Assembly: GCF_030028105.1 (NCBI RefSeq)
Contig: NC_092370.1
Coordinates: forward strand, 86,944,969 to 87,008,968
Direction of reading: 5' to 3'
DNA from: Mobula birostris
Lineage: Eukaryota
DNA: 64,000 nucleotides
In this document: in pieces, positions 935-63,359 of the stretch
How positions within the stretch are numbered: the stretch's first letter is position 1
How the letters are laid out: each line of letters begins with the position of its first letter
Notes under the pieces: model-generated
The model's database searches: none
Seen by the model: only the letters and a program-made list of their open reading frames with translations
Told to the model about the DNA's origin: nothing
Position numbers and translations under genes: made by a program

Positions 935-1051
935 TGGGCCTGAAACGTCAACTGTACTCTTTTACCACAGATGCTGCCTGGCCTGCTGAGTTCCTCCAGC
1001 ATTTTGTGTATGTTGCTCAGATTTCCAGCATCTGCAGATCCCCTCTTGTTT
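935..1051 (+). mobile_element. Penelope-like terminal-repeat fragment with the 3' half of the hammerhead motif
   Basis: GAAACGTC followed by agatgctgcctggcctgctgagttcctccagcattttgtgt...ccagcatctgcaga, shared with the PLE termini elsewhere in the window. Confidence 0.75.
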
Positions 1052-3912: not shown

Positions 3913-5185
3913 ACCTAAGGATGTGCTGGAGGCACCCTGCAAGAGTCACCACACATTCTGGTGCCAACAGAGCAGGTCCATAATGTTCATCGGGGTTATA
4001 ACAGAATGAATAGAACATTCTCTTTCGTAACAAGGCAGTGATTTGTGGTGAATTGTTGTTTTATCCAACTGCAGGGCTGAAGTCCTTCAGTGGTCAGCAC
4101 TAAGATAATTTCTTAATAGAAATTAAGAACTTGAATTTGAATTTTTTTCAAATTTATAGATGAATTAAAAACCTGAGACCCTGATGAATTGTGGTGAGGA
4201 CAGTAAAAGAGTTGAAGGAGATATTGGCACTTTAATGAAATGCATGGACAAATGACAGGTGAAATTTAAGGCTGAGAAATCTTATATTTTGGAAGGAAGA
4301 ATTGGAAGGGCATTTTAAATAAGAGGGTAAATCTGAAAGAAAGGTATAAGGTAGCTATAAAATATCTGTTACAGACAGAGAGGTTGGTTGAATTGTATAC
4401 ATAACATAGCTCATTGACAGTGGAAGGTCAGGTTGAAAAGGTGAGTAATATTGGATTTTGGATAATATCACTAATAGCAAAAAGGTACAACAGCAAGGAA
4501 GTCATAATGACCATTTATAAAACATTGCTTCAACCATAACTAGATCTTAGAAATAAAAAGGGGCCAACCACTTTGCTGGGGAACGTCTAACAAACATCCA
4601 TGCAGTCAGCAGTGTGGAACAGATTGGTCGACAAATCACAGAGTCAAATAAAAAGAATAGGTTAATAGGGGATACTTACAAAATATCTAGGAGGGCAAAG
4701 AGAAGTACAAAATAGAACTGGTGTGTAAGGTTAAAGGACCATTCAGTCCTTGAACCAATATATACCAAGCTAAAGCTAAAGAACAAGCAACAATCAACAG
4801 ATCATTATATTCTTGAGCTTTTAAATTTGTTATTAAGATATAGGCATCATTGATAAGGTCCGTTGTAATTGCTCAGCTCTTGTTATGATTGATAACGTGC
4901 GTGGGCAACTTCCTACAGCTGCAGCCCAAGAAAGTCACTCACAATGCTAAACAGAAGGCACTCCTGCTAAACCTGATGGAATGAACCTTGATTTCTGTTA
5001 TTTCAAATGTAATCCTGGGCAAAAATATTTCTTTACTGGCAATGTCAGTTTCACTGCAGATCTCTTTGAAAGTGGAAGTGAAACTCAAAACAGATCCCTA
5101 GTATCAGAATTGCAGTTGTATAACTTCTTCTAAGTAACTATTTTTTATTATGCACTTAAACTATATGTCTCCATATCCTGTAGCT

Positions 5186-5500
5186 AAACACCACTGGGGG
5201 AGCTCAGTGGGTCAGGCAGCATATGTGAAAGCAAAGGGATGGTTGACATTTCAGGATAGGACCCTGCATAGTGTAGGGAAAAGACAGCTAGTGCAGAGAA
5301 GTGAGAGGGAGCTAGTTGATGGGTGGAACCAAATAACAGATGAATGATGGGCAGTTGGAACCAGATGGGAATGGAGCAATTTAGATACAGAGGCTGCTGG
5401 GTGTTGGGTGGAATCAGATGAGGGGAAAAATACTGAGGCAAATGGGTGGAGGGAGTAAGGTAAAGGCAAAGACTGGAAGGTGATTTGTGGAACCAGATAA
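5186..5500 (-). mobile_element. Old Penelope-like terminal-repeat fragment
   Basis: Diverged match to ggaactcagcaggccaggcagcat...gacgtttc...gaccct, followed by the purine-rich tract typical of this repeat. Confidence 0.5.
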
Positions 5501-8189
5501 TACTTATTAAGTTCTTTCAGCAGTTTGGTTTTCCTCCATGTTCATATCTGTAGTCTCTTGTATCTCCTATAACCAGATCATGGATGCTATGATTAGAAAT
5601 GAGGAGAAAGGTGGTCAGTCTTTGGAATTATCTACCCCGAGAGGCTTATTATTGAGTTATTTCAAAACAAAACACAGATATTAAGTAATTCAAGGGATTT
5701 GGGAATAGTGCAGAAAGATGTGGTTGAAGATCAGACATCAGAAACAACAAAATATCTGAATTTTTCCACCACATACTTCTGATAAATATCTCGGAGAAAT
5801 TACAGAAACCAGAGTCCAAAACAACTCCCAATTATTTCTCAATTACAGCAACTGTAATTATTCATATTAGTTGTCACTACAGAAAAATAATCGTATTTTC
5901 CAAGCTAGTGAATAAGATGGGGAAGCAAGGTTTCATTCTGCAGATGGTCAGCCCAGTCAGCAAGAACAGGGTGATATCATTCAGGGGAAGGAAACTTAAA
6001 CAAGTGTTTTGTAAAATTAAATAGAAACTAAAATAGCTCAAGCTGGAAATAATGATGAGTTCAATGTAGAAACTTGTTGCAATCAATATGGGATTAACCC
6101 AGAAAAATATATTGATTTAATCAGAGATTAAGAGAACATTTTTAATTGTACTTGAAAGAAATTTCTGCACAGGACTAGAAGAAGTAACCATTTCAAAATT
6201 AATATCCACTTCTACAGGAGTATTCTAATACCTTTATCAACGTAAGATATGTTTCAGCATGTCTTACACCTTTGCTTTTTTCCTTTATTTTCACCCCAAT
6301 CTGTCATTTAGCCGTTCCTGCTGGCCACTTTAATCCTTCATTTTTGGCTGCTTGTTGGGAAATTCACACTGGTGTAATTTCAATGTAATATTGTTGTAAC
6401 AGCTCTCAAATTCAATTTTAGGAAGAGTTTTTTTTTATTAGGGTTGTATGGGAAATGAGTAAGGATCTCACTCTGTCTAAAATCAGTGGCCTTGACAGCC
6501 TCTTCTGTAAAGGATTCTTTAACAGTGCAAGATCATTTACTGTTGACTTATCCCAATTTCTGACCATACAACTCCTTTTGCTGATCACTCTAGAGCTGAC
6601 AATTAAAAGGTTGCCACTCTTTGGGTACTATGCATTCTTTCAAAATACTCACATTCCATTCTGCAATTTTAACTAAATTTCCAATCTTCCCTGTTTCTCC
6701 AAAATCCATCAAATCTTCCTGCTTTAATATTCCAAGCCCTTTTTCCCACAACTAAGGTTTTGCACCTTCACAACACTTGAACAGCCAAAAATGACATGCA
6801 AAAGTAAGCTATAGGGAAAGCTGGAAATCTGAATCAAAAACAGAAAACAAAGTAAATACTCAGTTACTCGGACAGCATGTAGAGAAAGAACAGAGTTAAT
6901 GTCTCACGATAAAAGATTCTTAGGCTAAAAACAGTTCCTGATTTTCTCTCTACAGATACCGTCAAGCCCGCTCAGGAATTCAGCTTTTTCAGCTTTCGTA
7001 TCACAGATACCATCTGTGCCACAGATGGCCACACCATCCCCTCAACACCTCCCTGCATTCTCCAGAGGACTGCCTTGACTTGCCTCTCTTATCATCTCAT
7101 GTAATGGCCTTTCTCCCCTGTAACTTTGCTTCTTGTTACCTATAATTATTCCTTCATCAATAACACTTATAACTTACAGAACATAGAACAGTACTCGTTG
7201 GAAATTGTCCTTCCACCCACAACATCTGTCCCAACCATGATGACAAATTAATCTAAACTTAACTGCCTGCACCATAAGCCATAAGAGCAAAATCCAGAGT
7301 CATTAGATTTTCGCACGGTCCAGAGGACTGGAAAATTGCAAATGTCACTCCACTCTTTAAAAAGGGAGGGAGACAGAAGAAAGGAAATCATAAGCCATTT
7401 ACCTTGACTACCCTGGATTCTGTGTAATCTTTGAATTTTGAAAGAAAGCCGCAGATAAGATTGAATCCCTACACACATTGGAAAAAGACTCTTCATCAAT
7501 AAGCTAAGTTTGGTATCAACTATAGTTTTAGCTTACTGCACATATGAGTAATATTTAAAGGTGCAAAGCAGTATAATTGTGAACACATCTAAATGAGAAC
7601 TTCCTTTGAGTGAGTTGTGATTAAAGACATGGTTATAGAGGTGAATACATGAGCAGAAATTTACAGTTACAATTAAACGCTGAAGTTTTGCAATGTCATT
7701 GAGTGCAATTGTCATACTTTGCTTGATATTTTGTGGTATTTTCTACCATATAATCTTCAGTAGATTCTATTATATTCTTGTGTTGTAATATTTGTGGTGC
7801 TCATATTTTTATTATTTAATTTATGGCATTTACTCAGTCTCAATATTTTTTTAAAATCACTTTAAAGTTGTGATGCTGTAAGAGCCTTGACCAGAATTAC
7901 TCCACTTGGGTTCAGATTGGACACAGAGAACAGGTGCAAGAAACAATCACCAAAATCACTATCACCCTTAACCACTGCTTGTTCTTGTATTACACTTCAT
8001 GAGATAATCTGCAGGCAGTAATATGCTTCTAAGCCTAAAGTGACTCCTACCAGTCCCACCTCTGTACCAATCTTTGAATGGTCCTTCTTGTTAGAATTCT
8101 TAGCCAACATTCAGTTCAGGCGAAATCATAGAGAATAAAAGCCTTTCATCTTCATAGCCTCAGGGCTTTCAGGTTGCTGGCACTTTAAA

Positions 8190-8350
8190 ACCAGTTGCTC
8201 CAGGTATTTGGGACTCAACTATGGTTGGCAGCTCATCTAGGAAAGGAAAAACTCTGATCTCAAACCTCCACTGCCTTGTGGCTATACCCATTCACGGGGA
8301 AGACTTCGGGAGTAAAACCTGAGGAAATATCCAGAGCTGGAGTCGCTAAG
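8190..8350 (+). mobile_element. Probable RTE-clade LINE 5' fragment
   Basis: tctaggaaaggaaaaactctgatctcaaacctccactgccttgtggctataccc...cttcgggagtaaaacctgagg resembles RTE 5' regions as recalled. Confidence 0.45.
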
Positions 8351-9572
8351 AATTCCAGGATGAAGAAATTTTTTGTCATTAAGGAATATCTAATCGACCA
8401 TTCCTTACTTTGAGACAGTGAGTCTAGACATCCCACCCAGGGGCGATAGAGCACAACCGTGGCTGACAAGGGAAGTCAAAACTAATATAAAAACAAAAGA
8501 GAAGGCATACAACAAAGCAAAAATTCGTGGGAAGACAGGTGAATGGGAAGCTTTTAAAATCCCACAGAGAGCAATAAAAAGAATCATTAGGAGGGAAAGG
8601 AAAAATATGAAAGCAAGCTAGCAAACAATAGTAACACTTTTTTTCAAGTGTGTAAAAATAAAAGAGAGATGAGAGTAGATATAGCATCACTAGAAAATGA
8701 GGCCAGAGAAATAATAACTAGGGACAAGAAGATGGCAGATGAACTAAATGAGTATTTTGCATCAGTCTTCACTGTAGAAGACACCAGCAGTGTGCCAGGT
8801 GCTGAAGGGTGTGTGGGAAGAGAAGTGAGTGCAGTTACTAATACAAGGGAGAAGGTGCTCAAAAAGCTGAAAGACCTAAAGGTACATAAGTCACCTGGAC
8901 CAGATGAACTGCACCCTAGGGTCTGAAAGAGGTGGTGTAGAAATTGTGGAGGCATTAGTAATGATCTTTCAAAAATCATTGGACTCTGGCAAATTGCAAA
9001 TGTCACTCCACTCTTTAAGAAAGGAAGAAGACAGCAGAGAGGAAATTATAGACCAGTTAGTCTGACCCCAGTGGGAAGATGTTGGAGTCAATTGTTAAGG
9101 ATGAGGTAATGGTGTACTTGATGACACAGGACAAGACAGGACAAAGGCAAAAACTTCAGGGAAAATCTTGCCTGACAAACCTGTTGGAATTCTTTGAGGA
9201 GATTACAAATAGAATAGATAAAGGGAACGTAGTGGATATTATAAATTTGGACTTTCAGAAGGTCTTTGACAAGGTGCCACATATGAGGCTGCTTACCATG
9301 TTAAGAACCCATACTATTACGGGAAAGTTACTGGCATGATTAGAGCGTCAGCCATTTGGTAGGAGGTGGCAAGTGGGAATAAAAAGATCCTTTTCTGGTA
9401 TGCTGCCAGTGATTAGTGAAGTTCGGCAGGGGTCAGTGTTGGGACTGCTTTTTGTGCTGTGTATCAGTGATTTAGATGATGGAATAGATTGTTTTGTTGC
9501 CAAGTTTGCAGATGATACAAAGATTGGTGGAGGAGCAGGTAGTGTTGAGGAAACAGGTAGGATGTGGAAGGA

Positions 9573-12083
9573 TGCAAACACGAGGAATTCTGCAGATGCT
9601 GGAAATTCAAGCAACACACATCATAGTTGCTGGTGAACAGGCAGCATCTCTAGGAAGAGGTACAGTCCACGTTCAGGCTGAGACCCTTTGTCAGGACTAA
9701 CTGAAGGAAGAGCTAGTAAGAGATTTGAAAGTGGGAGGGGGAGGGGGGAATCCAAAATGACAGGAGAAGACAGGAGGGGGAGGGATGGAGCCAAGAGCTG
9801 GATAGGTGATTGGCAAAAGGAATATGAGAGGATCATGGGACAGGAGGCCCAGGGAGAAGGAAAATGGAGGGGGGGATCCCAGAGGATGGGTAAGGGGCAT
9901 AGTCAGAGGGACAGAGGGAGAAAAGGAGAGTGAGAGAAAGAATGTGTGTATATAACTAAATAACAAATGGGGTACGAGGGGAGGTGGGGCATTAGCGGAA
10001 GTTAGAGAAGTCAATTGTCTCCCACACCATCACCCAATTTATCCGCTCAGGGGATCTTCCATCCACTGCTACCAACCTTATAGTTCCCACACCACGCACT
10101 TCCCATTTCTACCTCCTACCCAAGAGCCACAAACCTGCCTGTCCTGGCAGACCTATTGTCTCAGCTTGCTCCTGCCCCGCCGAACTCATTTCTGCATACC
10201 TCGACACGGTTTTATCTCCCCTTGTTCAATCCCTTCCTACCTATGTTGGTGACACTTCTCACGCCCTTAAACTTTTCGATGATTTTAAATTCCCTGGCCC
10301 CCATTGCTTTATTTTTACCATGGATGTCCAGTCCCTATATACTTCCATCCCCCATCAGGAAGGTCTCAAAGCTCTCCGCTTCTTTTTGGATTCCAGACCT
10401 AATCAGTTACCCTCTACCACCACTCTGCTCCATCTAGCGGAATTAGTCCTTACTCTTAATAATTTCTCCTTTGGCTCCTCCCACTTCCTCCAAACTAAAA
10501 GTGTAGCTATGGGCACCCGTATGGGTCCCAGCTATACCTGCCTTTTTGTTGGCTTTGTGGAACAATCTATGTTCCGTGCCTATTCTGGTATCTGCCCCCC
10601 ACTTTTCCTTCGCTACATCGACGACTGCATTGACGCTGCTTCCTGCACGCATGCTGAGCTCGTTGACTTCATTAACTTTGCCTCCAACTTTCACCTTGCC
10701 GTCAACTTTACCTGGTCCATTTCCGACACCTCCCTCCCCTTTCTAGATCGTTCTGTCTCTATCTCTGGAGACAGCTTATCTACTGATGTCTACTATAAGC
10801 CTACTGACTCTCATAGCTATCTGGACTATTCCTCTTCTCACCCTGTCTCTTGCAAAAATGCCATCCCCTTCTCGCAATTCCTCCATCTCCACCACATCTG
10901 CTCTCAGGATGAGGCTTCTCATTCCAGGACGAGGGAGGTCCTCCTTTTTTAAAGAAAGGGGCTCCCCTTCCTCCACCATCAACTCTGCTCTCAAATGCAT
11001 CTCCCCCATTTCACGCACATCTGCTCTCACTCCACTTTCCCGTCACCCCACTAGGAATAGGGTTCCCCTGGTCCTCACCTACCACCCCACCAGCCTCCGG
11101 GTCCAACATATTATTCTCCATAAATTCCGTCACCGCCAACGGGATCCCACCACTAAGCACATCTTTCCCTCGCCCCCTCTTTCTGCTGTCCGCAGGGATC
11201 GCTCTCAACATGACTCCCTTGTCCATTCATCCCCCCCATCCCTCCCCACTGATCTCCCTCCTGGCACTTATCCGTGTAAGCGGAACAAGTGCTACACATG
11301 CTCTTATACTTCCTCCCTTACCACCATTCAGGGCCCCAGACAAGTCCTTCCAGGTGAGGCGACACTTCACCTGTGAGTCGGCTGGGGTGATATACTGTGT
11401 CCGGTGCTCCCGATGTGGCCTTCTATATATTGGCGAGACCTGACACAGATTGGGAGACCACTTTGCTGAACACCTACGCTCTGTCCGTCAGAGAAAGCAG
11501 GACCTCCCAGTGGCCACACATTTTAATTCCACATCCCATTCCCATTCTGATATGTCTATCCACAGCCTCCTCTACTGTAAAGATGAAGCTACACTCAGGT
11601 TGGAGGAACAACACCTTATATTCTGTCTGGGTAGCCTCCAACCTGATGGCATGAACATTGACTTCTCTAACTTCCGCTAATGCCCCACCTCCCCCTCGTA
11701 CCCCATCCGTTATTTATTTATATACACACATTCTTTCTCTCTCTCTCCTTTTTCTCCCTCTGACCCTCTGACTATACCCCTTGCCCATCCTCTGGGTTTC
11801 CCCCCCCCCACCCACCCCGCTTTCCTTCTCCCTGGGCCTCCTGTCCCATGATCCTCTCATATCCCTTTTGCCAATCACCTGTCCAGCTCTTGGCTCCATC
11901 CCTCCCCCTCCTGTCTTCTCCTATCATTTTGAATCTCCCCTCCCCCTCCCACTTTCAAATCTCTTACTAGCTCTTCCTTCAGTTAGTCCTGACGAAGGGT
12001 CTCAGCCTGTAACGTCGACTGTACCTCTTCCTAGAGATGCTGCCTGGAATGCTGCATTCACCAGCAACTTTGATGTGTGTTGC
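9573..12083 (+). mobile_element. Penelope-like element (Neptune-type) with an inverted 5' pseudo-LTR
   Basis: RT motifs MDVQSLYTSIP, AMGTRMGPSY, LRYIDD; Cys linker CKRNKCYTC; GIY-YIG GVIYCVRCSRCGLLYIGET. 9611-10015 is an inverted copy of 11657-12083. TSD taggatgtggaagga/taggatgcagaagga (9558-9572, 12084-12098). Frameshifted. Confidence 0.95.
11985..12020 (+). ncRNA. Minimal hammerhead ribozyme motif, mutated (GAAA->GTAA)
   Basis: agtc-CTGACGA-agggtctcagcct-GTAA-cg-TC-gact within the PLE terminal repeat. Confidence 0.6.
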
Positions 12084-12952
12084 TAGGATGCAGAAGGACT
12101 TAGACAGATTAGGAGAATGGGCAAGAAAGTGGCAAATGAAATATAATGTTGGAAAATGCATGGTCATGCACTTTGGTAGAAGAAATAAAAGTACGGACTA
12201 TTTTCTAAGTGAGGAGAAAATTCAAAAATCTGAGATGCGAAAGGACTTAGAAGTCCTTGTGCAGAACACCCTACAGGTTAACTTGCAGGTTGAGTCTATG
12301 GTGAGGAAGGCAAATGCAATGGTCCCATTGATTTCAAGAGGTCTAGTATACAAGAGCAAGGATGTGATGCTGAGGCTTTATAAAGCACTAGTGAGGTGTC
12401 ATCTTGAGTATTGTGAATAGTTTTGGGCTCTTCATCTAAGAAAAGATGTGTTGGCATTGGAGAAGGTTCAGAGGAGTTTCACAAGGATGAATCTGGGAAT
12501 GAAAGGGTTATCATACGAGGAATGTTTAATAGCTCTGGGTCTGCACTCGCTGGAATTTAGGAGGATTGGGGGGTGGGGGCGGAGTTTCATTGAAAACTTT
12601 TGAATGTTGAAAGGCCTAGACAGAATAGACGTGGAAAGGATGTCCAGGACAAGAGAGCACAGCCTCAGAGTAGAGAGGTGTCCATTTAAAACAGAGATGC
12701 AGGGAAATTTCTTTAGCCAGAGGGTGGTGAATTTGCAGAATTTATTACCACAGGCAGCCATGGAGCCCAGCTTGTTGGGTGTATCTAAGACAGAGCTTGA
12801 TAGGTTCTTGATTGGACTTGGCATCAAAGGTTACGGGAAGAAGGCCAGGGAATGGGGCTGAGGAGGGGAATGGTGGTTCAGCCATGTCTGAATGGCGGAG
12901 CAGACTCGACAGGACAAATGGCCTAACTCTGCTCCTATGTGTCGTGGTCTAA

Positions 12953-13235: not shown

Positions 13236-14857
13236 ATGCATCCTTGCATCTAACCAGTCAAGCCCCACATAAACCCTCATTCTACTAAACTTAGTGTATG
13301 GGCTCAGTCTGCTTATCCTCTCCTCTTAGCACAAGCTCCATCTCAAAACAATCTGATGAACTTTTGCTGCTCCCCTTTATTACACTTCCCTGGTATTTGC
13401 TTACTGTGTTGGAGCTCAGGCTAGAGTGTTTGCTTTGAGATTCTCTTGCCAAGTATGTGGATGAAATAGTTCACTCGCTGGATTGGGTTCAGTTAATTAC
13501 AACCTTAATGCTGGGGATGCTGGATTGGATGAAGATGACTGATTTGGTTTGCTGATCCTGCCAGTGATAATGGGAAGTAGTTCCCTGGTGCCTACTCTAA
13601 ATAGCCAATAGTTTTGAAGTGTACACCACTGCTGCTCAGTAGACCATGAGCTCCTTTTCCATGGGCAGCTAAAGGCTGAGCAGGTACATTGCGGGCCTTT
13701 GTTACTGGTAGTCTTTGTGAATGATGTTGCCTTTGCTTAGAACAGGCTTCCAAGTAAAGGTGAATGATCCATGTTGTCAGGGTCCTGGCATGGATCTGAA
13801 TTGTCAAAGGATCCCCATATATATAGAAAAGTGTCTTAATGTTAAGAGGATCACAACTTAAGCTCCTTCTGTTACCAGATTTGGGGAGCTGAGTTGGGTG
13901 AGGAAGACCCTCAAATAATGGAAGGGTGTATCACCCCAGAGGACTGCATGTGGCAATGGTGCTATGGTTTAAGCGATAAGCATTAACACTGTTGAATACG
14001 TTGACCAAATGTCACAAAGAATGTAAAGTGTCCTGCAAATTTTCTTCTAGATTTTATTACAATTATTATTTTTCTATATATAAATTATGTATAAATTATT
14101 TTTAAATGAAAAGATGCATCTCAATGTAAAAAGACATGGAAAACTTAAAGGTACATGAAATGTGAGAAACACAGGGTCTCCTTAACTAAAATGTCTAGTT
14201 TGATTGTTGTATAATTCCACTTTACTAATGATACTGGCTGCATAATCCCTTCAAACTGACTGCTTTGAATTCTCAGAGTTATTTCAATCTCAAAAGCTAC
14301 TTGTGAAGTAAAAAAAAACACCCTAAAAATAGCACATAGCAAAGAAAGATGAATCTCTGGAAATAGATCTTTTAAAATTGTCTGGTAAAATTACTCACAT
14401 TATCTAGAGCATAGTAGAAGAAATGAGGAGTTAGGTTGTATTAGACTCCATCTAGTGGTCCATGCTAATAAATGTGGCTCTCACCACTTAAATACAAATA
14501 ACTAGAATCAAACAGTTTGCATGTTCACAAGATAACTTGAGCTGAGAATGGACAAGAGGCACAATGTAATTCATCTATCTAGAAGGATTGTAATGATGCC
14601 CTACCCCCTCCAGTATGTGTTTTCTGAATAATTCCAAGTGTTGGTCACCATCTCCCTATTGCAATGTTCATTACAAACCAATCAATCTTTAGGTGTGAAG
14701 GCAACTTTCCATCTTATTGATGACATTTTCTGGGTGAGAAATCTGACCCTCTCCTGTCTTCAATTAAAACAAAATGCTGGGAAACTTCAGATTAGGCAGC
14801 AGGTAGAGCAAGAGGATACCTAAGGAGAAGCTAAGACCACTCAAGGATAAAGAGGGT

Positions 14858-15638
14858 AAACACGAAGAATTCTGCAGATGCTGGAAATTCAAGCAACACA
14901 TATCAAAGTTGCTGGTGAATGCAGCAGGCCAGGCAGCATCTCTAGGAAGAGGTATAGTCGACGTTTCGGGCCGAGACCCTTCATCAGGACTAACTGAAGG
15001 AAGAGCTAGTAAGAGATTTGGAAGTGGGAGGGGGAGGGATGGAGCCAAAAGCTGGACAGGTGATTGGCAAAAGGGATATGAGAGGATCGTGGGACAGGAG
15101 GCCCACGGAGAAGGAAAAGGGGGAGGGGGGGGGAACCCAGAGGATGGGCAAGGGGTATAGTCAGAGGGACAGAGGGAGAAAAAGGAGAGAGAAAGAATGT
15201 GTGTATATAAATAAATAATGGATGGGGTACGAGGGGGAGGTGGGGCAGTAGCGGAAGTTAGAGAAGTCAATGTTCATGTTGGAGGCTACCCAGACAGAAT
15301 ATAAGGTGTTGTTCCTCCAACCTGAGTGTGACTTCATCTTTACAGTAGAGGAGGCCATGGATAGACATATAAGAATGGGAATGGAATGTGGAATTAAAAT
15401 GTGTGGCCACTGGGAGATCTCTGGCCTTCTCTGGCGGACAGAGCGTAGGTGTTCAGCAGAACCATCTCCCAGTCTGCGTCGGGTCTCGCCAATATATAGA
15501 AGGCCACATCAGGAGCACTGGATGCAGTATATCACCCCAGCCGAATCACAGGTGAAGTGTCGCCTCACCTGGAAGGACTGTCTGGGGCCCTGAATGGTGG
15601 TAAGGGAGGAAGTGTAAGGGCAAGTGTAGCACTTGTTT
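14858..15638 (-). mobile_element. Penelope-like element 3' part (GIY-YIG C-terminus plus terminal repeat)
   Basis: Near-identical reverse complement of 11283-12083 plus the terminal tail. Confidence 0.92.
14955..14992 (-). ncRNA. Minimal type I hammerhead ribozyme motif with intact core
   Basis: Minus strand reads TAGTC-CTGATGA-A-GGG-tctcgg-CCC-GAAA-CG-TC^GACTA: 5-bp stem I, both conserved boxes, 3-bp stem II, palindromic ACGT stem III. Predicted cut between 14960 and 14959. Confidence 0.8.
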
Positions 15639-16635
15639 GGATGCGGAGAATGTGAGTGAGGTCCTGAATGAGTATTTTACTTCAATACTTACCAAAGAAA
15701 AGGACATGGAGGACCAGAAGATCAGTGCAGAGTGCATAAATATGTTAGGGCATTTAGAGGTTAAGGAGAAAAAGTATTGGCTCTCCTAAGGAGTATTAAG
15801 GTGAATAAGTCCCCAGAGCTTTTTGGAATTTACCGCAAGTTATTGAGGGAGGCAAGAGATGAGATTACTGGTGCCTTGACCCAGTACCTTCTTGTCCACC
15901 TAGGCACCATTGAGGTCCTGGAGGACTGGCAAGTGGCTAATGTTGAATCTCTATTTAAGAAGGGAACAGAGGAAAATCCTGGGAACTATAGACCAGTGAG
16001 TCTCACATCAGTTGAAGAGAAATTGCTGGAGAGAATTCTAGGAGATGGGGGATATATGAGCATTTGGAAACCCATGGCTTAATTAGGGAGAGCCCAGCAT
16101 GGCTTTGTGCCGGGCAAGTCGTGTCTTACTAACTTGATTCAGTTTCTGACAAGAGTGATAGATGAGGGTAGGAGCAGTGGATGCTGTCTACGTGGATTTT
16201 AGTACGGTGTTTGACAAAGCCTCTCATGGGAGGCTAAACCAGAAGATTAAGATTCATGGGGTCCATGGTGAATTAGCTGTTTGGATTCAGAACTGGCTTG
16301 CACATAGAAAACAGAGAATAGTAGGTGAAGGGATTAGTAAGTTTGCCAATGAAACCAATATTGATGGAGTTGCGAATAGTTTAGGAGACTGACAAAGAAT
16401 ACAGCCTGATATAGATCAGTTGTAGATATAGGTAGAGAAATGTCAAAAGGAGCTTACCCCAGATAAATGTGAGGTGTTGCACCCTGGTAGGGTAAATGCA
16501 AGGAGCAGTCCACAGTTAAGCACATGATCCTTAACAGTGTTGTTGAGCAGAGAGATCATGGGGTCCAAAGGTCATAGCTCCTTGAAAGTAGCTACACAGG
16601 TTGATAAGGTGGTTAAGAAGGCTTATGGAATACTT

Positions 16636-17010
16636 GCAACACACACAAAATACTGGAGAAACTCAGCAGGCCAGGCAGCACCTATGGAGAATAGTATAGT
16701 GCATGTTTTGGGCCGAGACCCTTCATCAGGACTGGAGAAAAAAAGTCAGAGTTAGAAAGTGGTAGGCTGAGGTCATTGAGGTTTAAGTAAATAGATGGTC
16801 TTCAGTCCCAAGATTAGTCTTGATCTTTCGGAGTAGTAGCTCAGACTCAAAGACAAATGGGCAACTATGCATTGTGCTGTTGAAGGGCCTCAGCCCAAAA
16901 TGTCGACTACTTATTCATTTCCATAGATGCTGCCTGGCCTGCTGGGTTCCTCCAGCATTGTGTGTGTGTTGTTCGGATTTCCAGCATCTGCAGATTTTCT
17001 CATTTGTGAT
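16636..17010. mobile_element. PLE terminal-repeat inverted pair
   Basis: 16636-16745 (-) and ~16875-17010 (+) are inverted copies, both with degenerate hammerhead motifs. Confidence 0.8.
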
Positions 17011-17239: not shown

Positions 17240-19613
17240 AGAGTTTGTTAGGTGTGTTCAGGAAGGTTTCTTGACACAATATGTGGATACGCCTACACGA
17301 GGAGAGGCTGTACTTGATCTGGTATTGGGAAATGAACCTGGCCAAGTGTCAGATCTCTCAGTGGGAGAGCATTTTGGAGATGGTGATCACAATTCTATCT
17401 CCTTTACCATAGCTTTGGAGAAGAATAGGAACAGACAAGTTAGGAAAGTGTTTAACTGGAGTAAGGGAAATACGATGCTATCAGGCAGGAACTTCGAAGC
17501 ATAAATTGGAAACAGATGTTCTCAGGGAAATGTATGGAAGAAATGTGGCAAATATTCAGGGGATACTTGCATGGAGTTCTGCATAGGTATGTTCCAATGA
17601 GAGAGGGAAAGGATGGTAGCGGACGGGAACTGTGGTGTACAAAGGCTGTTGTAAACCTAGTCAAGAAGAAAAGAAGAGCTTACGAAAGGTCCAAAAAACT
17701 AGGTAATGATAGATATCTAGAAGACGATAAGACTAGCAGGAAGGAGCTTAAGAATGAAATTAGGAGAGCCAGAAAGGGCCATGAGAAGGCCTTGGTGGAC
17801 ATGATTAAGGAAAACCCCAAGGCATTCTACATGTACGTGAAGAGCAAGAGGATAAGACGTGAGAGAACTAATCAAGTTTGACAGTGGAAAAGTGTGTATG
17901 GAACCAGAGGAGATAGCAGAGGTACTTAATGAGTACTTTGCTTCAGTATTCACTACGGAAAAGGATCTTGGCAATTGTAGGGATGACTTACAGCGGACTG
18001 AAAAGCTGCAGCATGTAGATATTAGGGAAGAGGATGTGCTGGAGCTTTTGTAAAGCATCAAGTTGGATAAGTCACTGGGACCGGATGAGGTGTACCCCAG
18101 GCTACTGTGGGAGGTGAGAGAAGAGATTGCTGAGCCTCTGGCGATGATCTTTGCGTCAACAATAGGGACGGGAGAGGTTCCAGAGGACTGGAGGATTGCA
18201 GATGTTATTTCTTTATTCAAGAAAGGGAGTAGAGATAGCCCATGAAATTATAGACAAGTGAGTTTTACTTCAGTGGTTGGTAAGTTAATGGAGAAGATCC
18301 TGAGAGGCAGGATTTATGAACATTTGGAGAAGCATAATATGATTAGGAATAGTCAGCATGGCTTCATCAAAGGCAGGTTGTGCCTTACCAGCCTGATTGA
18401 ATTTTTTGAGAATGTGACTAAACACATGGATGAAGGTAGAGCAGTAGATGTAGTGTATATGGATTTCAGCAAGGCATTTGATAAGGTACCCCATGCAAGG
18501 CTTATTTAGAAAGTAAGGAGGCATGGAATCCAAGGGAACATTGCTTTGTTGATCCACAGAAGGCAAAGAGTGGTTGTAGGTGGGTCATATTCTGCATGGG
18601 GGGGGGGGGGGTCGTTGACCAGTGGTGTGCCTCAGGGATGTCTTCTGGGAATGCTGCTCTTCCTGATTTTTATGACCTGGATGAGGAAGTGGAGGGATGG
18701 GTTAGTAAATTTGCTGATGACACAAAAGTTGGAGGTGTTGTGGATAGTGTGTAAGGCTGTCAGAGGTTACAACGGGACATTGATAGGATGCAAAACTGGG
18801 CTGAGAAGTGGCAGATGGAGTTCAACCCAGATAAGTGTGAAGTGGTTCATTTTGGTAGGTCAAATATGATGGCAGAATATAGTATTAATGGTAAGACCCT
18901 TGGCAGTGTGGAGGATCAAGGGATCTTGGGGTCCGAGTCCATAGGACACTCAAAGCTGCTGCGCAGGTTGACTCTGTAGTTAAGAAGGCATACGATGCAT
19001 TGCCTTTCATCAATCGTGGGATTGAGTTTAGGAGCCAAGAGGTAATATTGCAGCTATATAGGACCCTGGTCAGACCCCACTTGGAGTACTGTGCTCAGTT
19101 CTGGTCGCCTCACTATAGGAAGGATGTGGAAACCATAGAAAGGGTGCAGAGGAGATTTACAAGGATGTAGCCTGGATTGGGGAGTGTGCCTTATGAGAAT
19201 AGGTTGAGTGAACTCAGCCTATTTTCCTTGGAGTGACAGAGGATGAGAAGTGACCTGATAGAGGTATATAAGATGATGAGAGGCATTGATTATGTGGATA
19301 GTCAGAGGTTTTTTCCCAGGGCTGAATGGCTAACATGAGGGGGCACAGTTTTAAGGTGCTTGGAAGTAGGTACAGAGGAGATGTCAGGGTAAGTTTTTTT
19401 ATGCAGAGGATGGTGAGTGCATGGAAGGGGCTGCCGGCGACAGTGGTGGAGGCGGATATGATAGGGTATTTTAAGAGGCTCCTGGATAGGTACATGGAGC
19501 TTAGAAAAATAGAGGGCTATGGGTAACCCTAGGTAATTTCTAAGGTGAGGACATGCTCGGCACAGCTTTGTGGGGCGAAGGGCCTGTATTGTGCTGTAAG
19601 TTTTCTATGTTCT
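17240..19613 (+). mobile_element. CR1 LINE, ~2.4 kb of ORF2 plus 3' UTR
   Basis: TQYVDTPTRGEAVLDLVLGNEPG, ENPKAFY, LNEYFASVFT, SQHGFIKG, YMDFSKAFDKVPH, WAEKWQMEFNPDKC; tail tttctatgttct. Confidence 0.95.
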
Positions 19614-20137: not shown

Positions 20138-20295
20138 TCACAAACAAGAGAAATTCTGCAAATGCTGGAAATCCAAACAACACACACACAAAGCTGGAGG
20201 AACTCAGCAGGCCACTAAGTACCTATGGAAAAGAGTACGTATTGAGTCCCGATGAAGGTTCTGGGCCCGAAACGTTGACTATACTCTTTTCCACA
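20138..20295. mobile_element. Short fold-back PLE-derived insertion with a hammerhead-like motif at 20245-20280
   Basis: Inverted tail arm followed by agtc-CCGATGA-aggttctgggccc-GAAA-cg-TT-gact. Confidence 0.75.
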
Positions 20296-20804: not shown

Positions 20805-22970
20805 TTTGTCAAATGCATTCAGGAAAGTTTCCTTAAACAGTACATATAAATTCCAACTAGAGAGAGGGTGAAACCACATCTCCTGTGAGGGACAGAGACA
20901 GGGCAGGTAATAAAAGTTTTTGAAGGGACACACTTTGCATCTAGTGAGCATAATGTCGTTACTTTCAAGGTAATTATAGAAAAGAATAGGTCTAGTCCTG
21001 GAGTTAAGATTCTAAATTGGAGAAAGGCCAATTTTGAAGGTATTAGAAACGATCTGGCAAATGTGGATTGGGACAGGCTGTTCTCTACCAAAGCTGTACC
21101 TAGTAAGTGGGAAGCCATCAAAAGTGAATTTTTGAGAGTACAGTCTCTATGTTCCTGCCAGAATAAAAGGCAAGGATAAGGAAACCTTCGTTTTTGAGAG
21201 GTATTAAGGCCCTGGTTAAGAAAAAGGTGATGCACAGCAGGTATAGGTAGGTGGAAACAAATGAGATCCTAAAGGAGTAGGTATAAGAAATGCAAGAGAA
21301 CATTTAAGGAGGAAATCAGAAGGGCTAAAAGAAGATATGAGACTGCTCTAGCAGACAAAGTGAAGGAGAATCCTAAGGGCTTCTACAAATATATTAAGAG
21401 CAAAAGGATAGCAGGGGACAAAATTGGTTCTCTAGAAGATCAGAATGGTAATCTATACATGGAGCTGAAAGAGACATATTAGGTGGATAAATCCCCATGA
21501 CCTGACAAGGTGTTCCCTCAGACCCTGCAGGAGGCAAGTGCAGAAAATGCCAGGGTCCTAGCAGAGATATTTAAAACATCCTTAGCCATGGGTAGGGTGC
21601 CAGAGGATTGGAGGATAGATAAATTTGTTCTCTTTTTTTCAGAAAAGCCCTAAGAATAAGCCAGGAAATTATAGGCCAGTCAGCTTGACAATATAGGTGG
21701 GAAAGCTATTGGAAAGTATTCTAAGGGATTGGATCTATAAGTATTTGGATTGACAGGGATTGATTAGGGCTAGTCAGCATGGCTTTGTACGTGGTAAGTC
21801 AGGTCTAGTCAATCTTATACAGTTTTTTAAGGTAGCTACCAGGAAAGTTGATGAAGGCAAGGCAGTGGATGTTGTCTACATGGATTTTAGCAATGCCTTT
21901 GACAAGGTCCTGTATGGGAGGTTGGTCAAGATGAGGTAATAAATTGGATTAGTCTCTGGCTTTGCAGGAGAATGGTTGTAAATGGTTGCCTCTCTGTTTG
22001 GAGGTCTGTGACTAGTGGCATTCTGCAGGGGCTAGTACTGGGTCCATTGTTGCTTGTCATCTATAGCAACTGGATGATAACGTGGTAAACTGCATCGGAA
22101 AAATTTGCAGATGACACCAAGATTTTGGGTATAGTGGACTGTGAGGAAGACTATTAAAGCTCGCAGCAGGGTCTGGATCAGCTGGAAAATGGCAGATGAA
22201 ATCAAATGCAGACAAATGTGAGGCATTGCACTTTGGGACGACAACCAGCGTAAGTCTTACATGGTCAGTGGTAAGGCACTGAGGAGTGCAGTAGAACAGA
22301 GGGATCTGGCAATACAGATCCAAAATTCCTTGGAAGTGGCATCCTTAGCCATGGGTTGAAAAGTAAGCTTTTGGCACATGGTTTAATGAAGGCCAATGTA
22401 TTGAGTAGAGTTGGGATATTATGTTGAAATTGTATACAACATTATTGAGGCCTAATTTGAAGTACTGTGTGCAGTTTTCGTCAACTGCCTACAGGAAAGG
22501 TGTAAATTTTCTTTGCTCTCTTTCAATCTTATTTACAAGGATGTTGTCAGAATTTGAGGACCTAAGTTCCAGGGAAAGATTGAGTAGGTTAAGACTTTAT
22601 TCCTGGGAATATAGAAGATGGACGGGAGATTTGATAGAGGTATACAAAATTATGAGGGTTGATAAATGCAAGCAACTTTGCCCACTGAGATTGGGTGAGA
22701 CTACAACTAGAGGTCATAAGTTAAGGGTGAAAGGTGAACAGGGTCAAAAGGGGGGCTTCTTCACTCAGAGTGCGGAATGAGCTGCCAATGCAAGTGGTGG
22801 ATGGGGGTCCAATTTCAACAATTAAGAGAAATTTGGATAGGTACAAGAATGGGATGGATATGGAGGGCTACGGTCTGGGTGCAGATAATTGACTCGAGGC
22901 AGTTTAATTGTTGGGCACAGGCTAGATGGGCTAAAGGGCTTGTTTGTGCTTTAGTGTTCTGTGACTCTGA
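20805..22970 (+). mobile_element. CR1 LINE, degenerate
   Basis: LNWRKANF, KENPKGFYKY, NYRPVSL, YMDFSNAFDKV, KFADDTK, MLKLYTTLLRPNLKYCVQF; CR1 3' UTR. Confidence 0.92.
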
Positions 22971-25172: not shown

Positions 25173-25368
25173 CAAATCACAAACAAGAGAGAATCTGCTG
25201 ATGCTGGAAATCCAAGCAACACAGACAAAATGCTGCAGGAACTCAGCAGGCCAGGCAGCATCTATGGAAAAGAGTACAGCCGACGTTTCAGGCCTAGACC
25301 CTTCAGCAGGATTTTTTTCCATAGATGCTGCCTGGCCTGCTGAGTTCCTCCAGCATTTTGTATGTTGC
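25173..25368. mobile_element. ~195-bp fold-back PLE-derived insertion in PRELID3A intron 5
   Basis: Inverted arms; TSD cagaataaggagt/cagaataagaagt (25160-25172, 25369-25381); hammerhead-like CTGCTGA...GAAACGTC on the minus strand. Confidence 0.85.
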
Positions 25369-28300
25369 CAGAATAAGAAGTTTTAGGATGGATGAAGAAA
25401 AAGTTCTTCTGAGGGTCGTGAATCTCAGGTATTCTCTGTCCAGGAGAACATTAGAATCAAATGGTGACTGACAAAAGAATCAAAGGGTATGGGGAGCAAA
25501 TGGGAAAGTAATGTTGAGACTTAGGTTGGATCAGGATCAGCCATGATCTGACTGAATGAACTCCAAAGGTTGATTGACTGACCTATTCATGCTCTTGTTT
25601 TATGCAACCTTATACTGTATAATTCTGGATTCCAGAATTAGTACTGTTTCTGCTGCCTGTCCTATTCCTATTTGTTGTCTATGCACAGACTTATCAAAGA
25701 ACAACTTATAAAATTACATTTGCACTTTTTTGAAGCAAATCACTAATTTATATTCAACTTGAAAGACCAACTTTGCACGGGATAAAGAATCCACAATGGA
25801 TGTGCACAAATGAGTCAAAATGCAAGGCATCTTTCAACTAATTGTGGCCATTACACATAGAATCTGAGAGAAAGATTAACACAGATATACTTGTATTATT
25901 CTTCAATGTTTGGCTTTTCTACCAAATGATGAAGTAAGTTTTTCTCGGTAAAAAATACTCCTTAGCTACAGTACATAACAGCAGAACAGTTTCAGATTAC
26001 ATGCCTAGAATGGTCTGGAGGATACACAGGCTGGAGGAAAGATAATATAATCTGGAAAACAAAGGTTGAATTACAACAATTAAAAATAAATACAGGTCAA
26101 GTTTCACAATGAAATACCAATACACAAATGATATTTCTGTCATGCACCTGCAGAACAGAAATATTATCAAAACAAATCACTGACTAAAATTAAAAGCTAA
26201 CATCTAAAGCAATGAATAATTTCAATTTGGTTTTGTAATATTCATCTGTTGTTACTCACAAAATGTATAGAAAAGTACATTTTGGCATGCAAAACCCTTG
26301 CACAAGTATCATCCCATGGATAACTTTAAAAAATAATGGATATAAACAGTATCTATTTTCCTATAGTCACAAAACTTTATAAAACATCCTCTTCAGTAAA
26401 TACTTGGATTCCCAAAAGGAAAAACAGTAGAATATATCTGCACGTCATCAATCTCCATCTATTGCCTTAAGTTGAAGTTAAAGAACCAAAGAAGTTCATA
26501 AAGTATGCAAGTACTATGTAGGCATCACAGATAGCAAGAAAGAGGTGGGCTGCAAGAGCCCATTTCTGTCCAGTATGATTCTGCGAAATCAAGCTTTCTG
26601 TCATCTTACATGCGGGAGTCAAGGTAGGCAAAAAAGCCAAAGGGGCAGGAGTCTAAAAATTACAGCTCATCCTTCAAATTAGGAAACCAAAGAAATGAGG
26701 GTGGCAGAAACTGGAACTCGTTCGCCATGAATAATCGATGCTGAAGCCCATAGACATAATGTTTAAAGTACGCTCAAAATTCAGCTTTTCAAACTTTAGC
26801 TGTCATTAATTCAGCTTAATTAACTTTAGTTAATTTTAAATTCAAGATTGATTTTCTAAAGAGGCTATGTGGAAGATGGATGTTAACAATCACCAGTGAT
26901 TTCATTGATAAATCAGACACTATGGTCTAAACAGTCCACTCTTAATCATTTGTTCCAGAAATTCATTCAAAGTCAGATCGCATGAAACAAATGTGATTTC
27001 AGGTTTAAGGTGGCTGTCCTCTCTCTCTTTCTCGGGTTAAAAAATAACCCTCAATACTCAAAGTACACAATGCAGTTGACAGAACTCTCAAAAATCTGTA
27101 ACAATTTGTACTAAACTAAGACCTTGTTTAGTATTTTAAAGATTTTAATTTTATTTTATTTAACTTATCACTATAAAATATACCTAATGCTTCAAACAGA
27201 GCAAACAAGGTTTCTTTCATAATCATCCCTCAGGAGTGGCCACTAACAGATACCACTCAACGACCCAAAACTCTGAAATGACCCTGCTTCTCTATCAAAA
27301 TTCACCCAAGACAATGCACATCATTTTTTTAAGTACCAGAGGATAGATGCTATAATCAATGCATGTTTGGGAAAAACGCAACACATGGTGTAAAATATAT
27401 ACAGCTGAAAGATTAAACATTTGATTTTTTTAATGACAAGATAGCACACCTTTTAAATTATAGCTAGCTATAAGCATAACAAACATGCAGTCCATGCCAC
27501 TCAAACATGAGCCCATTACATGCAATAAAACATTAGACTAGCTGGGTATTTCAATAAATAGTTACCACTGGTTAATGCAAATTGCAGAAGTGTAAGCTGT
27601 TAGTTAACACTTTCAGAGTTTTGAATTATCCACTCAATAGCATCCCACCCCTAGAGCAACACAGAAAAGGCATGTCATACAGGGGCATACAAAGTCTGCA
27701 GTATTCTCACCATACAACAAAACATCTTTTTTGTATTAATAGTAGGATAAAAACTAAAATTCTTCATACAGTCCTTTAACGGCAAGTTTTATCTTCACTC
27801 AAGGTATTCAGACAATGTTTATATTCTTTATACAAAGTGTGGCCTTATGAGGGAAAGCTTTACAGATGAGGTTAACATCCACTGGAGTTTACATGAGTGA
27901 AAGAAATATTGATTAAAACATACAAGATCCTGAGAAACCTTCAGAGGATGGATATGGAGAGGATGTTACCTCTTTAGGAGAATCTGAAGTCAGAGTTACT
28001 AAAGGATCAAATATTCAAGAGATATACATAGCCATATGATTTGTTATAGAATTCCATGTATCTTTGAAACTTTTTTTCCTCAAAGGATGGTAGTACATTT
28101 AAGGCAAAGAAAGATTCTTGGCAGGCAAGGGGATTTGAAAAAAAACTACTGGGGATATGAAGGAATGCAGAGTTTAAGTTACAATCAGATTAGCCATAAT
28201 GTTATAGAATTAATTTTTTTACATGTAAAGTAATAATCATCCCTTATCCAAACAAATAAGCTGATTTGAATTCTACTCTCATTTATTCAAACATTCCAAG

Positions 28301-31863: not shown

Positions 31864-34202
31864 CTAACAAAAACATATTATAAAAGATTACCATATGAAT
31901 CAACTCACTGGGGCATTAATTGAGATTCAAGTTCTGTAAAATGTCAAATTCCCTCAATCCAGAATAAAAATGTAATAGAAGCACAGACAGCAAACAACAT
32001 TTGAATTCACACCAGACATTGCAGTCATTTTTAATACATAATAGTAAATGCAATTAAGACAATGTACATATTTTAATACAACATTGCAGCAATGACAGTT
32101 GGAGCAATCTCTGCGAACAATATTGACATTTATAATGCAAAAGAATGCTGGAAATTCTTGCTTTCAGTAGGAAGAAAAATAAAGTTAACTGAGAAACTGT
32201 TCTTTCTGTACAGATCTGCCTAACTTATCAAGAATTTCTAGAAATATGCTCTTATTTTCAGCTTCCATTGCCTGCATTTTTTAAATTGCTTCTCAACTGC
32301 CACATTTAAAATTTGTTTGAAAAGCAGGCTAGGTAGTTTTGATTTTACACCAAGCCAAAAACATTCTAATTATTTTAACTGATCTATGCTACAAGTATAG
32401 AGAAACGTTGCATTTAAGATAAAAGCCTGCAGAAAAAAAACAAAATGCCATGATAGGTGGGTTTAGTTACATGTAAGTTTATACTGAGTGTTATCAATCG
32501 CTCATCATGGAAATCTGACATTTTTGCTCAGATTTTCTTCTATCATTTTTCTCCAAGTTCTCAGCCTTTGCATCCTTTTCATCACCTCCACTGATTTCCC
32601 CTAATCTATTCTCTGGACACACCTTCAAAAAAACTCTGATAGATGAGTTAATACAACTTCCTCTTCATAATAAAATGCACAATTAATATGAGTCTAAGTG
32701 TCTTGATAGCACATCCTTTATTGAGGATCCAGAGTTATGCTAACTACTGATGTCAAGCTAACAGGTAGCTTCCCATTTTCGCTCTGCTTCCTTAAAAAGT
32801 GAGGCTGCATATATTATCCACCAATTTACAAGAAATCATTCCTGGATCTATAGAGTCCTGCAAGAAATCTCAGAGCATCCACCACCTCTGTACACATTTC
32901 TTTCAAAAGTCTGAAGTGCAAATTATCAGTTTCTTGTGACTTACCAGCTTTCAGATTTGTTATCATCTCTAGCAGTACTTCTTTCATTTTCTCATCCAAA
33001 CTGTACCCTTATTTCTTCATCACTTATAATGTTTTTTGTATTTTGTTCACCAAAGGCAAACAATAATAATACTTAATAAATTACCTGTCATTTTCTCATT
33101 TCCTGTTATAAATCCACCATCTATGTAACAGACCCCCATTTCTTGTTGCTACTGTTTTTCTTTTAACTAATACACATTTTTAACATGGATAAAGATATTC
33201 TTATTGTCTTTTTAATAAGTTTACTCTAATGTTTGATTTTCCCCTTCAACTTCATGGCCATACTTTGTCAAATTCTAAAATGTTCTCAGTCTTCAGGATT
33301 TCTACCTTTCCTGGCTACTTTAAGTCTCCAAGATCTAATACCATATTTATTTTCTCTGCAATCTGCAGATGGACCATATTTTCAAATGGAAGGAATTTTT
33401 CTTTTTACAAATGTATTATTTTGTTAAATGCAGACACAAGAAAGACTATATATGCTGGAAATCTGCAGCAACATACAAAATGCTGGAAGAACTCAGTAGG
33501 TCAGGCAGCATCTATGGAGGGAAATGGAGAGTTGATATTTTGGGTGGAGAACCATTATCAGAACATTTTTAAGTGCTAGTCACTCCTTGCCTTTTATCAT
33601 ACCCTTTAATAGTTTGCCAGTCTTTCACAGGCAACCTGTCCTAATGCCTTCATTGTTCTCTGTTCAGATTGAACAAACATTACTTCTAAAATTGATCATT
33701 TTAATTATAATTACTCACCAGGTCTAGAGCAATCCTGTCAGTCCCATTCTCCCCTGTATCCTATTTCAGATTTATTTATTACATGCACATTGACTCATAC
33801 AGTGAAATGCATAGTTTTCTCTCACATGCTTACCTACTTCACCAATTCTACTTTCGTTGATCTACAATAGGAGCAATCTACAGTAGCCAATTAACTTACC
33901 AGCATGTCTTTGTGACAAAGGAGGAAACTGAAGTGTGTGTTCACAGGGAGAACATACAAACTGTACACAGACAGCACCCAAGGTCAGAAACTATGTCATC
34001 CTCAAATGTTAAAACTAATTGAATTGACAGATCATCACTATATCAAACTTTATTGATTTTTTTTTCAGTTTAATATTTACTTCAGAAGGAGCAACTGTGC
34101 CAATTCTCCTAAAGTCTGTACATTCATATAAGTAAACATTTTGTTTTTTAAAACCTCCTATTGATTTTGGACATACAATACAAAAAAAAGGTGTCAGTAT
34201 TA

Positions 34203-36146: not shown

Positions 36147-36839
36147 AAGAGGTAGATATTTTGCCTCAACTGCAGCCCAAATCTATTTTCCAAACATAAG
36201 GTTTATTATTGTAGATATTTCCCAGATGAATTAGTTGCAGCTGGGAAAGAGACACATTGCAATTAATTTGCCTTTCAAATCAAGCTGTCATTTTCCTATC
36301 ACTCCAGCTTATGACAAATTATTGTTCAGCTCTTTGTCAAGGCAGATCCTTTTATATCATGTAATACACTTTAATATATGATTAGTTTATCATATACCAT
36401 AAGGCGCAGTGAGATTCATTATCTGCATGAAGCTCAAAGAAGTCATGGCTATAATAAATGCAACAACTACAACGAGGAGCATAAAACTACAAATGGCACA
36501 AAGATTTGAGTGCAAATTAGATGTTAAACAGAAGGAAAATGGTCAGTTTTGAGGTGAACATAACTGTGGTAAAGATGAATAACGTTCGCCTCATAGCCAA
36601 AGCCTGCATACCCCGACCTACACCAGCTTAATCAGTAGGGCAAGCTATCTCTTCGACGAGTCCACAGCAAAGTAAGGGTAAGGGACAACAGGCGCTGGAA
36701 TCGGGTAGACTCAAAGCGGGTCGATTAGCCTGTGTGGAGACAGAGTATGAAAGTTGACGGTTCGGGTTGAGACCCTGCATCAGTCCTTTTGCCTCTCAAA
36801 TGCTGCCTGACACGCTCCTCTTACATCAAGGTGAGTACC

Positions 36840-63302: not shown

Positions 63303-63359
63303 AAGGGCTCCCGGCAGTGGTGTAGGATGTCCTGTTACTAAATCAAATGGACTTGGTTT

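Follow-up and report, generated by a model that had tools for sequence, protein, structure and literature searches.

A predicted minimal hammerhead motif near the tail of a Penelope-like element, and its decayed copies, in 64 kb of Mobula birostris DNA

Are hammerhead motifs that recur through a stretch of genomic DNA working self-cleaving RNAs, or leftovers of the element that carries them? The question is raised by a short minus-strand motif in the window, as the whole 64-kb stretch of Mobula birostris DNA analysed here is called, for which an earlier note had described stems I and II, a palindromic ACGU and many further copies. That fishes have Xena, Poseidon and Neptune elements paired with minimal hammerhead ribozymes (min-HHRs) has been in print since 2014 (PMC4209133). 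The min-HHRs of Penelope-like elements (PLEs) are reported to have no activity as monomers and low activity as dimers (Cervera & De la Pena 2014, PMC4209133), and the motif of an anole element to cut only with the element's protein, uncut RNA being the main template (Frangieh et al. 2024, PMC11167929).

The motif and its host element

The features on which the argument turns are the following.

14955-14992, minus strand: predicted minimal type I hammerhead motif with 12 of 12 core bases, intact stems I and II and a palindromic ACGU
14858-15637, minus strand: 5'-truncated Neptune-type Penelope-like copy holding the motif, with a Zn-linker/GIY-YIG end, pyrimidine-rich 3' UTR, hammerhead, stem-loop and ~33-nt tail
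14858-14891, minus strand: optional 'tail' extension, its ends read by eye (tail as defined in PMC8557442 and PMC11167929)
14990-15016, minus strand: pyrimidine tract that runs up to an AG in the 5' arm of stem I and resembles a splice acceptor, by sequence and by loose-end consensus
9996-11681, plus strand: frameshifted, 5'-truncated ORF with Penelope-type reverse transcriptase (RT; PF00078), Cx4CxxC linker and GIY-YIG endonuclease (EN)
9576-12086: double-armed insertion, made of an inverted tailed arm (10015-9576) and a forward tail-less arm reaching 12086

The minus-strand motif reads exactly as the earlier note had written it. Stem I has five pairs (5' arm 14992-14988, 3' arm 14959-14955); the CUGAUGA box (14987-14981) is followed by one bulged A; stem II consists of three G-C pairs and one U-G with a 4-nt loop; and the GAAA box (14967-14964) is followed by CG and then UC. 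The palindromic ACGU (14964-14961) stands in place of helix III, and on a reading of the sequence the cut is predicted after GUC, at 14960/14959. A self-built min-HHR descriptor gave two matches in the 64-kb window (14987 on the minus and 38388 on the plus strand), as against a mean of 0.05 and a maximum of one in 100 block shuffles of the window, so the motif is not a chance product. Rfam found no hammerhead family in the window at E<=1. The loose pattern CTGATGAN{8,25}GAAA is not by itself above chance in the window (3 matches, 1.42 expected). An Rfam match to Plastid-psbJ-4 (25237-25350), under the gathering score, was rejected as an artefact, being the inverted repeat of a double-armed insertion.

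The Rfam result, the loose pattern and the lack of a covariation signal (below) are what would be expected if the end of a repeat merely resembled the hammerhead consensus by chance. Against this stand the descriptor counts, and also the position in the 3' pseudo-LTR (pLTR), the bulge after A9, the G10.1-C11.1 pair and the 15.2-16.2 palindrome, all of which fit the published PLE consensus. Position and consensus together effectively refute chance resemblance, whose probability we put at next to nothing.

The likeness to the min-HHRs of metazoan PLEs, as given in PMC4209133, extends to the type I topology, to CUGANGA with one unpaired base, to the palindrome instead of stem III, to the short stem I, to the pLTR location and to the occurrence of copies that are mostly single, variable and dispersed. 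A coral Neptune entry in Fig. S3 of that work agrees in its core boxes and its CG palindrome, whereas the stem II of Schistosoma families has 7-8 bp, compared with 4 bp here (PMC4209133). Cartilaginous fish are absent from Table S1 and from the portion of the Fig. S3 list available to us (PMC4209133). In the literature searched there was no paper on PLE hammerheads in sharks or rays specifically; the supplements of bioRxiv 2026.07.22.740005 or Lunse et al. (RNA Biol) itself may list such families.

The identity of the host was read from the ORF at 9996-11681. Its match to PF00078 is weak (E 1e-4, below the curated cut-off) and the EN fragments of the ORF gave no Pfam match themselves. A search for longer proteins returned 560 matches among 2888 candidates, the best one, from the bamboo shark Chiloscyllium punctatum, with 71% identity, which fits a genome of a cartilaginous fish; homologues of ~890 aa align through RT, linker and EN in three frames. 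A GIY-YIG-like motif is present in 52 of the 63 listed homologues of at least 800 aa, all 52 with an upstream Cx2-5CxxC; the window ORF reads CKRNKCYTC at the linker, then VIY...YIGET. A Cx2-5CxxC linker between RT and EN marks Neptune and Nematis elements, according to Craig et al. (PMC8557442). By its linker, the host is thus read as a Neptune-type PLE, with the reservation that this mark is common to Nematis. Residues 1-330 of the homologues have no match in the window. On the sense strand of the element, two splice-donor-like sites (11348-11356 and 11370-11378) lie in the endonuclease coding part.

The motif belongs to the 3' pLTR, where ~300 nt separate it from the endonuclease stop on its 5' side and ~100 nt from the tailed 3' end. 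With an RT, a Zn-linker and a GIY-YIG endonuclease in its host and a fit to the published min-HHR consensus, the earlier reading as a minimal type I hammerhead in a Penelope terminal repeat holds, and 14955-14992 is confirmed as a genuine minimal hammerhead sequence near the tail of a Penelope-like element, its activity being a matter of prediction.

Copies in the window and the decay of the core

Copies were collected by blastn and by an nhmmer profile made from six copies in the window, which yielded 19 copies of the hammerhead region and five pieces that retain nothing but sequence 3' of the ribozyme, 24 segments in all. PLE-derived DNA amounts to ~8.5 kb, or 13% of the window, with intervals set by hand. 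Besides the motif at 14955-14992, the hammerhead copies are as follows.

935-954, plus strand: truncated inside stem II, no CUGANGA box
5240-5277, minus strand: old, heavily decayed
9663-9699, minus strand: G8A, one A deleted, C17G
11984-12021, plus strand: A13U
16697-16734, minus strand: G12A, C17G
16872-16909, plus strand: A6U, G12A
20244-20281, plus strand: U4C; inverted partner arm 20238-20143
25277-25313, minus strand: A6C; in double-armed insertion 25182-25374
33529-33566, minus strand: G8A, G12A
36751-36788, minus strand: A9C, A15.1C
38383-38429, plus strand: the other copy whose core is intact; stem II lengthened by a local duplication of 9 nt
38993-39030, plus strand: C3U, stems damaged
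46395-46480, plus strand: old remnant, 3' half of motif and downstream region
46961-46999, minus strand: A6G and further lesions, their count depending on the alignment
48943-48980, minus strand: A6C, U16.1C; terminates a longer inverted PLE fragment (48850-50244)
52959-52996, plus strand: A6C, G12A
54408-54445, minus strand: G8A
60785-60821, plus strand: A6U, 1-nt deletion; inverted tail fragment before the copy and 16-bp flanking duplication

The 15 further sites that had been listed are indeed all homologous copies, and three more (5277 minus, 33566 minus and ~46405 plus) were absent from that list. As intact hammerheads the listed sites do not stand; the one near 940, for example, is the copy cut inside stem II. 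All 12 core positions are intact in two of the 19 copies (14955 and 38383), two are truncated, and the other 15 carry one to four core lesions, with G8A or G12A in seven of these 15 damaged whole-core copies. These two positions are CpG-prone, since G12 has C11.1 in front of it and G8 has N7, where C makes up 58-83% of contig depth. The motif holds five CpG-prone sites, G8 and G12 being two of them, and the CpG observed/expected ratio of the window is 0.33.

The majority letter over the 17 whole-core copies is canonical at 12 of 12 core positions (CUGANGA, GAAA, U16.1, H17). The bulged A after A9 is found in 15 of 17, G as first stem II base in all 17, and each letter of the CG of the 15.2-16.2 palindrome in 14 of 17. 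Within subfamilies the core decays neutrally, as fast as the downstream flank: non-CpG mismatch in core and flank is 2.9% and 2.5% in subfamily Y (4 copies), 9.5% and 8.4% in subfamily M (7 copies) and 14.8% and 21% in subfamily O (6 copies), none of these differences being significant, and CpG-prone sites differ in 17-32% of cells. Pooled over subfamilies, 10.5% of non-CpG core and 20.1% of flank differ (p=0.005, for copies that are not independent). The copies at 14955 and 11985, although 'young', are still 44 substitutions and 7 gaps apart in 803 columns.

Conservation between subfamilies was read from sequencing contigs. Contigs from four of 24 listed runs were matched to 14800-15700 at 80% likeness (6,846-75,121 contigs per run); the 24 runs are available as contigs only, 20 of them guessed to be RNA and four of unknown kind. 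In all four runs the two largest piles of loose ends listed coincide with the edges of the motif, at 14956 and 14991 or a neighbouring position (1399 and 980 contigs in run X21; 1244 and 926 in X22). Loose ends piled at both edges indicate that other subfamilies share a 36-nt module and diverge on both sides of it, although those at 14956 are partly an indel effect, as the downstream flank is still homologous. Among the variants listed (40 of 157), two lie inside the motif, at N7 and at the outer base of stem I, and none at core bases. No other island is as well conserved between subfamilies as the 36-nt module, from which it follows that selection acted in master elements. The earlier note had made the conservation of the CUGANGA and GAAA boxes over their flanks one test of the hammerhead reading; with a canonical majority throughout and a module that outlasts its flanks between families, this conservation is found. 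The depth of the motif relative to the downstream bin, lower in X1/X2 (~0.5) than in X21/X22 (1.4, 0.9), was rejected as evidence of cleavage, because the organisms differ, the runs consist of contigs only and their RNA status is guessed. No position with many contig starts or ends was listed in the four runs, a feature that contigs could not reveal in any case.

Could the dispersed copies nevertheless form a dense layer of active ribozymes, cutting host pre-mRNAs or read-through transcripts in cis or as trans-dimers? Their sheer number would favour this, with 19 copies in 64 kb and thousands to tens of thousands of matching contigs per run. Two cores are intact, two single-lesion copies carry variants with low activity elsewhere (U4C at 20244 and A6C at 25313; PMC3088659), and an intact core can in principle cut the site of another copy in a double hammerhead (PMC4209133). 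But 17 of the 19 copies are damaged or truncated, their cores are neutral within subfamilies, and published PLE monomers are inactive and dimers slow in vitro (PMC4209133). The 17 whole-core copies favour neither strand (8 plus, 9 minus). The two copies closest to 14955 on its own strand, at distances of 1.7 kb and 5.3 kb, are both damaged, and the window holds no tandem same-strand pair of intact motifs. Such a layer is very unlikely, and the claim that the repeat spreads self-cleaving motifs very densely was overstated, given the lesions and the lack of an intact same-strand partner near 14955. On sequence grounds, nearly all window copies are best described as decayed leftovers and not working self-cutting RNAs. 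Nineteen copies per 64 kb also look denser than the 4,000-9,000 per genome published (PMC4209133), but the latter are descriptor hits while the former include broken copies. A metagenome scan with the 19-nt downstream motif found 114 loci, none of which held the element beyond the motif (three weak matches, motif only).

Ends of the inserted copies

The 33-nt tail terminates eight of the 24 segments and seven stop just before it, as judged by eye. Comparable ends are known from Poseidon PAc of Anolis carolinensis, which likewise has its HHR near the 3' end and two 3' ends 30-40 nt apart, its tail lying between two RT start sites (PMC11167929). PAc differs in belonging to the Penelope/Poseidon clade, with an ORF that starts inside the HHR, whereas the window element is Neptune-type with its ORF start outside the window; and protein-assisted cleavage, shown for PAc (PMC11167929), is a conjecture for the window motif. 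In the window, the region 3' of the ribozyme (14892-14945, minus strand) folds into a long hairpin with the tail-less end within its 3' side (z -0.8, not significant), and this hairpin may be an RT-start structure.

Double-armed insertions are a recurrent form. The one at 9576-12086 sits inside a CR1-like LINE and is flanked by a 15-17 bp duplication, whose copies (9556-9572 and 12082-12098) have TG and CA, respectively, at one dinucleotide; this is the pattern that one CpG decaying on opposite strands would leave, and it supports a single old double-armed insertion. Miniature versions occur at 25182-25374 (13-bp flanking duplication) and at 60785 (16-bp), and inverted 5'-truncated arms at 9576-12086, 25182-25374 and 20143-20295. 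Between the outward-facing PLE ends 16628-16764 (minus strand) and 16870-17006 (plus strand) lie ~100 bp of unrelated DNA (16765-16868), which could be captured filler or a gap between two separate insertions; no flanking duplication was found around these ends (16628-17006), nor for the copy at 14858-15637.

With regard to the template, the cleavage site is present uncut in each of the 17 whole-core copies, none of which begins precisely at the cut. Four tail-only pieces start a few to ~10 nt past the cut, none exactly there, so that no cleavage-made 5' end was found. Whole copies that hold the uncut site are what reverse transcription of uncut RNA would produce (PMC11167929).

Short copies make up 15 of the 24 segments, and six of these have their 5' boundary at the 5' arm of stem I (16872, 20244, 25313, 33566, 36788 and 60785), within ~7 nt of its AG as judged by eye (post hoc scan p=0.01). 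Such copies might be thought to represent a non-autonomous retrozyme or SINE in its own right, with circular RNA as its means of spread, the more so because non-LTR retrozymes originate from the pLTRs of PLEs and are reported from a chondrichthyan (bioRxiv 2026.07.22.740005). The type I HHR and the relation to PLE pLTRs are indeed held in common with non-LTR retrozymes (PMC7229834, bioRxiv 2026.07.22.740005). By definition, however, a retrozyme needs tandem units each with an HHR, and the motif lies in none of the 15 arrays that Tandem Repeats Finder reports in the window. Unlike non-LTR retrozymes, the window copies are truncated PLE ends without tandem arrays (PMC7229834, bioRxiv 2026.07.22.740005), and the short ones resemble truncated PLEs in their scattered 5' ends, PLE tails and inverted arms. 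A separate retrozyme or SINE is considered highly improbable. A full-length tandem copy with two direct pLTRs is likewise missing from the window, all of whose PLE copies are 5'-truncated, a statement that concerns these copies and not the family.

Other repeats were noted in passing. Several PLE copies are inserted into CR1-like LINE fragments, which lie near 9400-9575, 12087-12420, 15640-16600, 17465-18930, 20819-21920, 22409-22780 and 44080-44577; a further CR1-like LINE (61878-63422, minus strand) has a 514-aa ORF with RVT_1 (E 8e-22). Three adjacent GC-rich tandem arrays at 42588-43655 (periods 58, 72 and 35 bp, the last with 14.7 copies), with long repetitive open frames, are perhaps the end of an LTR-type element. 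By eye, frames at 50807-51834 (minus strand) look like a Gypsy-like gag zinc-knuckle and protease (Pfam gave no match for 50810-51490), and a 151-aa frame at 63506-63961 (minus strand) presumably resembles the C-terminus of an L1/Tx1-type ORF2.

Splicing, cleavage and the role of the module

The acceptor-like AG of the tract at 14990-15016 is also part of stem I. The same arrangement, a pyrimidine tract and AG at the 5' arm of helix I that forms an intron end, is known from Drosophila virilis Penelope (PMC4209133, PMC2377424); splicing has been shown there, whereas for the window there is a resemblance in sequence and no donor has been identified. In the 11 of 17 copies that have the upstream flank, its pyrimidine fraction is 0.72-0.88, and ~1.3% of AGs in the window reach 0.8, but the entire 3' UTR is pyrimidine-rich. 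YTRAY occurs in only three of the 11 copies with a pyrimidine-rich upstream region. A branch-point heptamer that is perfect in the 54410 copy was discarded as not general, two runs having mostly another letter at 15006. No minus-strand GT..AG joint was present among the 15 joints listed, out of 447 in the four runs. For the six copies with a 5' end at stem I, the preceding DNA has a pyrimidine fraction of at most 0.40, and no first exon shared by them was found.

Position A6 is changed in six of 17 copies, three times to C (p ~0.009 after x9 correction, for copies that are not independent). A6C is common to the copies at 25306, 48972 and 52967, two of which share further changes, and this suggests that the A6C copies with shared changes form a subfamily. 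The changes at A6 further suggest that some sub-lineages spread with a weakened core. Splice site and core could conceivably be connected: on the pattern of Drosophila Penelope, the 5' arm of stem I would also serve an intron in the pLTR as its 3' splice site, and splicing would switch the ribozyme, intron-retaining RNA being left uncut and copied and spliced RNA being translated; the junction would be a hot spot for RT stops or template switches, and the A6C sub-lineage may have multiplied in spite of a weakened core. This scheme is speculative, and we think it probably wrong.

Several of the folding results count against the catalytic reading. Helix I and II pairs are formed in 77% of cells over 16 decayed copies, above all slid controls. 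Covariation over 16 window copies (those at 38383, 940 and 46405 being left out) is not above shuffles, of which 93, 98, 332, 114 and 92 of 500 reach the five observed measures. The 14955 motif folds no better than its shuffles (z -1.11), and in the predicted minimum-energy fold with flanks CUGAUGA is buried under the upstream pyrimidine tract. In the nearest-neighbour model the hammerhead-type dimer has -17.3 kcal/mol, as against -22.8 for two monomers (2 x -11.4) and -31.1 for the cofold minimum.

An alternative is that the module is maintained for something other than catalysis, for instance as a structured RNA to which the PLE protein binds or as a splice or promoter signal, cleavage being vestigial or dispensable and cores of the A6C kind multiplying freely. 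The A6 changes and the two A6C copies with further changes in common would agree with this, as would a hammerhead dimer fold that is not favoured. From published work it can be added that insertion in vitro was unaffected by core mutations in the anole motif, for which RNA-seq gave no reads ending at the cut (PMC11167929), and that Naiad elements thrive without an HHR (PMC8557442). On the other hand, the canonical majority at 12 positions, and the same core in PLEs from corals to frogs, would be needless for a purely structural role; a natural A6C hammerhead still cleaves, if slowly (PMC3088659), and the anole motif cleaves with protein and is rescued by C3G/G8C (PMC11167929). A module that is non-catalytic, or whose cleavage is dispensable, is regarded as unlikely.

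The reading that we prefer, and hold to be probable, is that the motif is the min-HHR of an abundant Neptune-type PLE family, functional in master elements and unselected in the dispersed copies, with its density as a by-product. By analogy with published PLE work, tandem transcripts of a few masters would bring two motifs together through their ACGU palindromes, pairing and cutting would probably be assisted by the element's protein, and a slow cut after GUC would trim or circularise the multimeric RNA. Reverse transcription would begin on RNA that is still uncut, 70-100 nt to the 3' side of the cut site, and as a result almost every insertion, however short, would carry the motif. Its density would then reflect hitch-hiking within ~100 nt of the RT start, together with copy number, and not a genome-wide layer of active ribozymes. 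Once inserted, the motif would be unselected and break fast at its CpG-prone sites; the copy at 14955 would have kept its intact core by chance, with no intact same-strand partner nearby.

Altogether, the window extends the 2014 result on PLE hammerheads to another cartilaginous-fish genome, and it puts right the notion that live ribozymes form a dense layer, about one in 10 copies having a full core. A family that is very abundant and split into subfamilies is good material for the question of what PLE hammerheads do. Routes to that role are offered by the canonical and A6C subfamily masters and by the overlap of intron and ribozyme; if the scheme that joins splicing and cleavage were true, the A6C sub-lineage would be a natural test of whether cleavage matters for the spread of PLEs.
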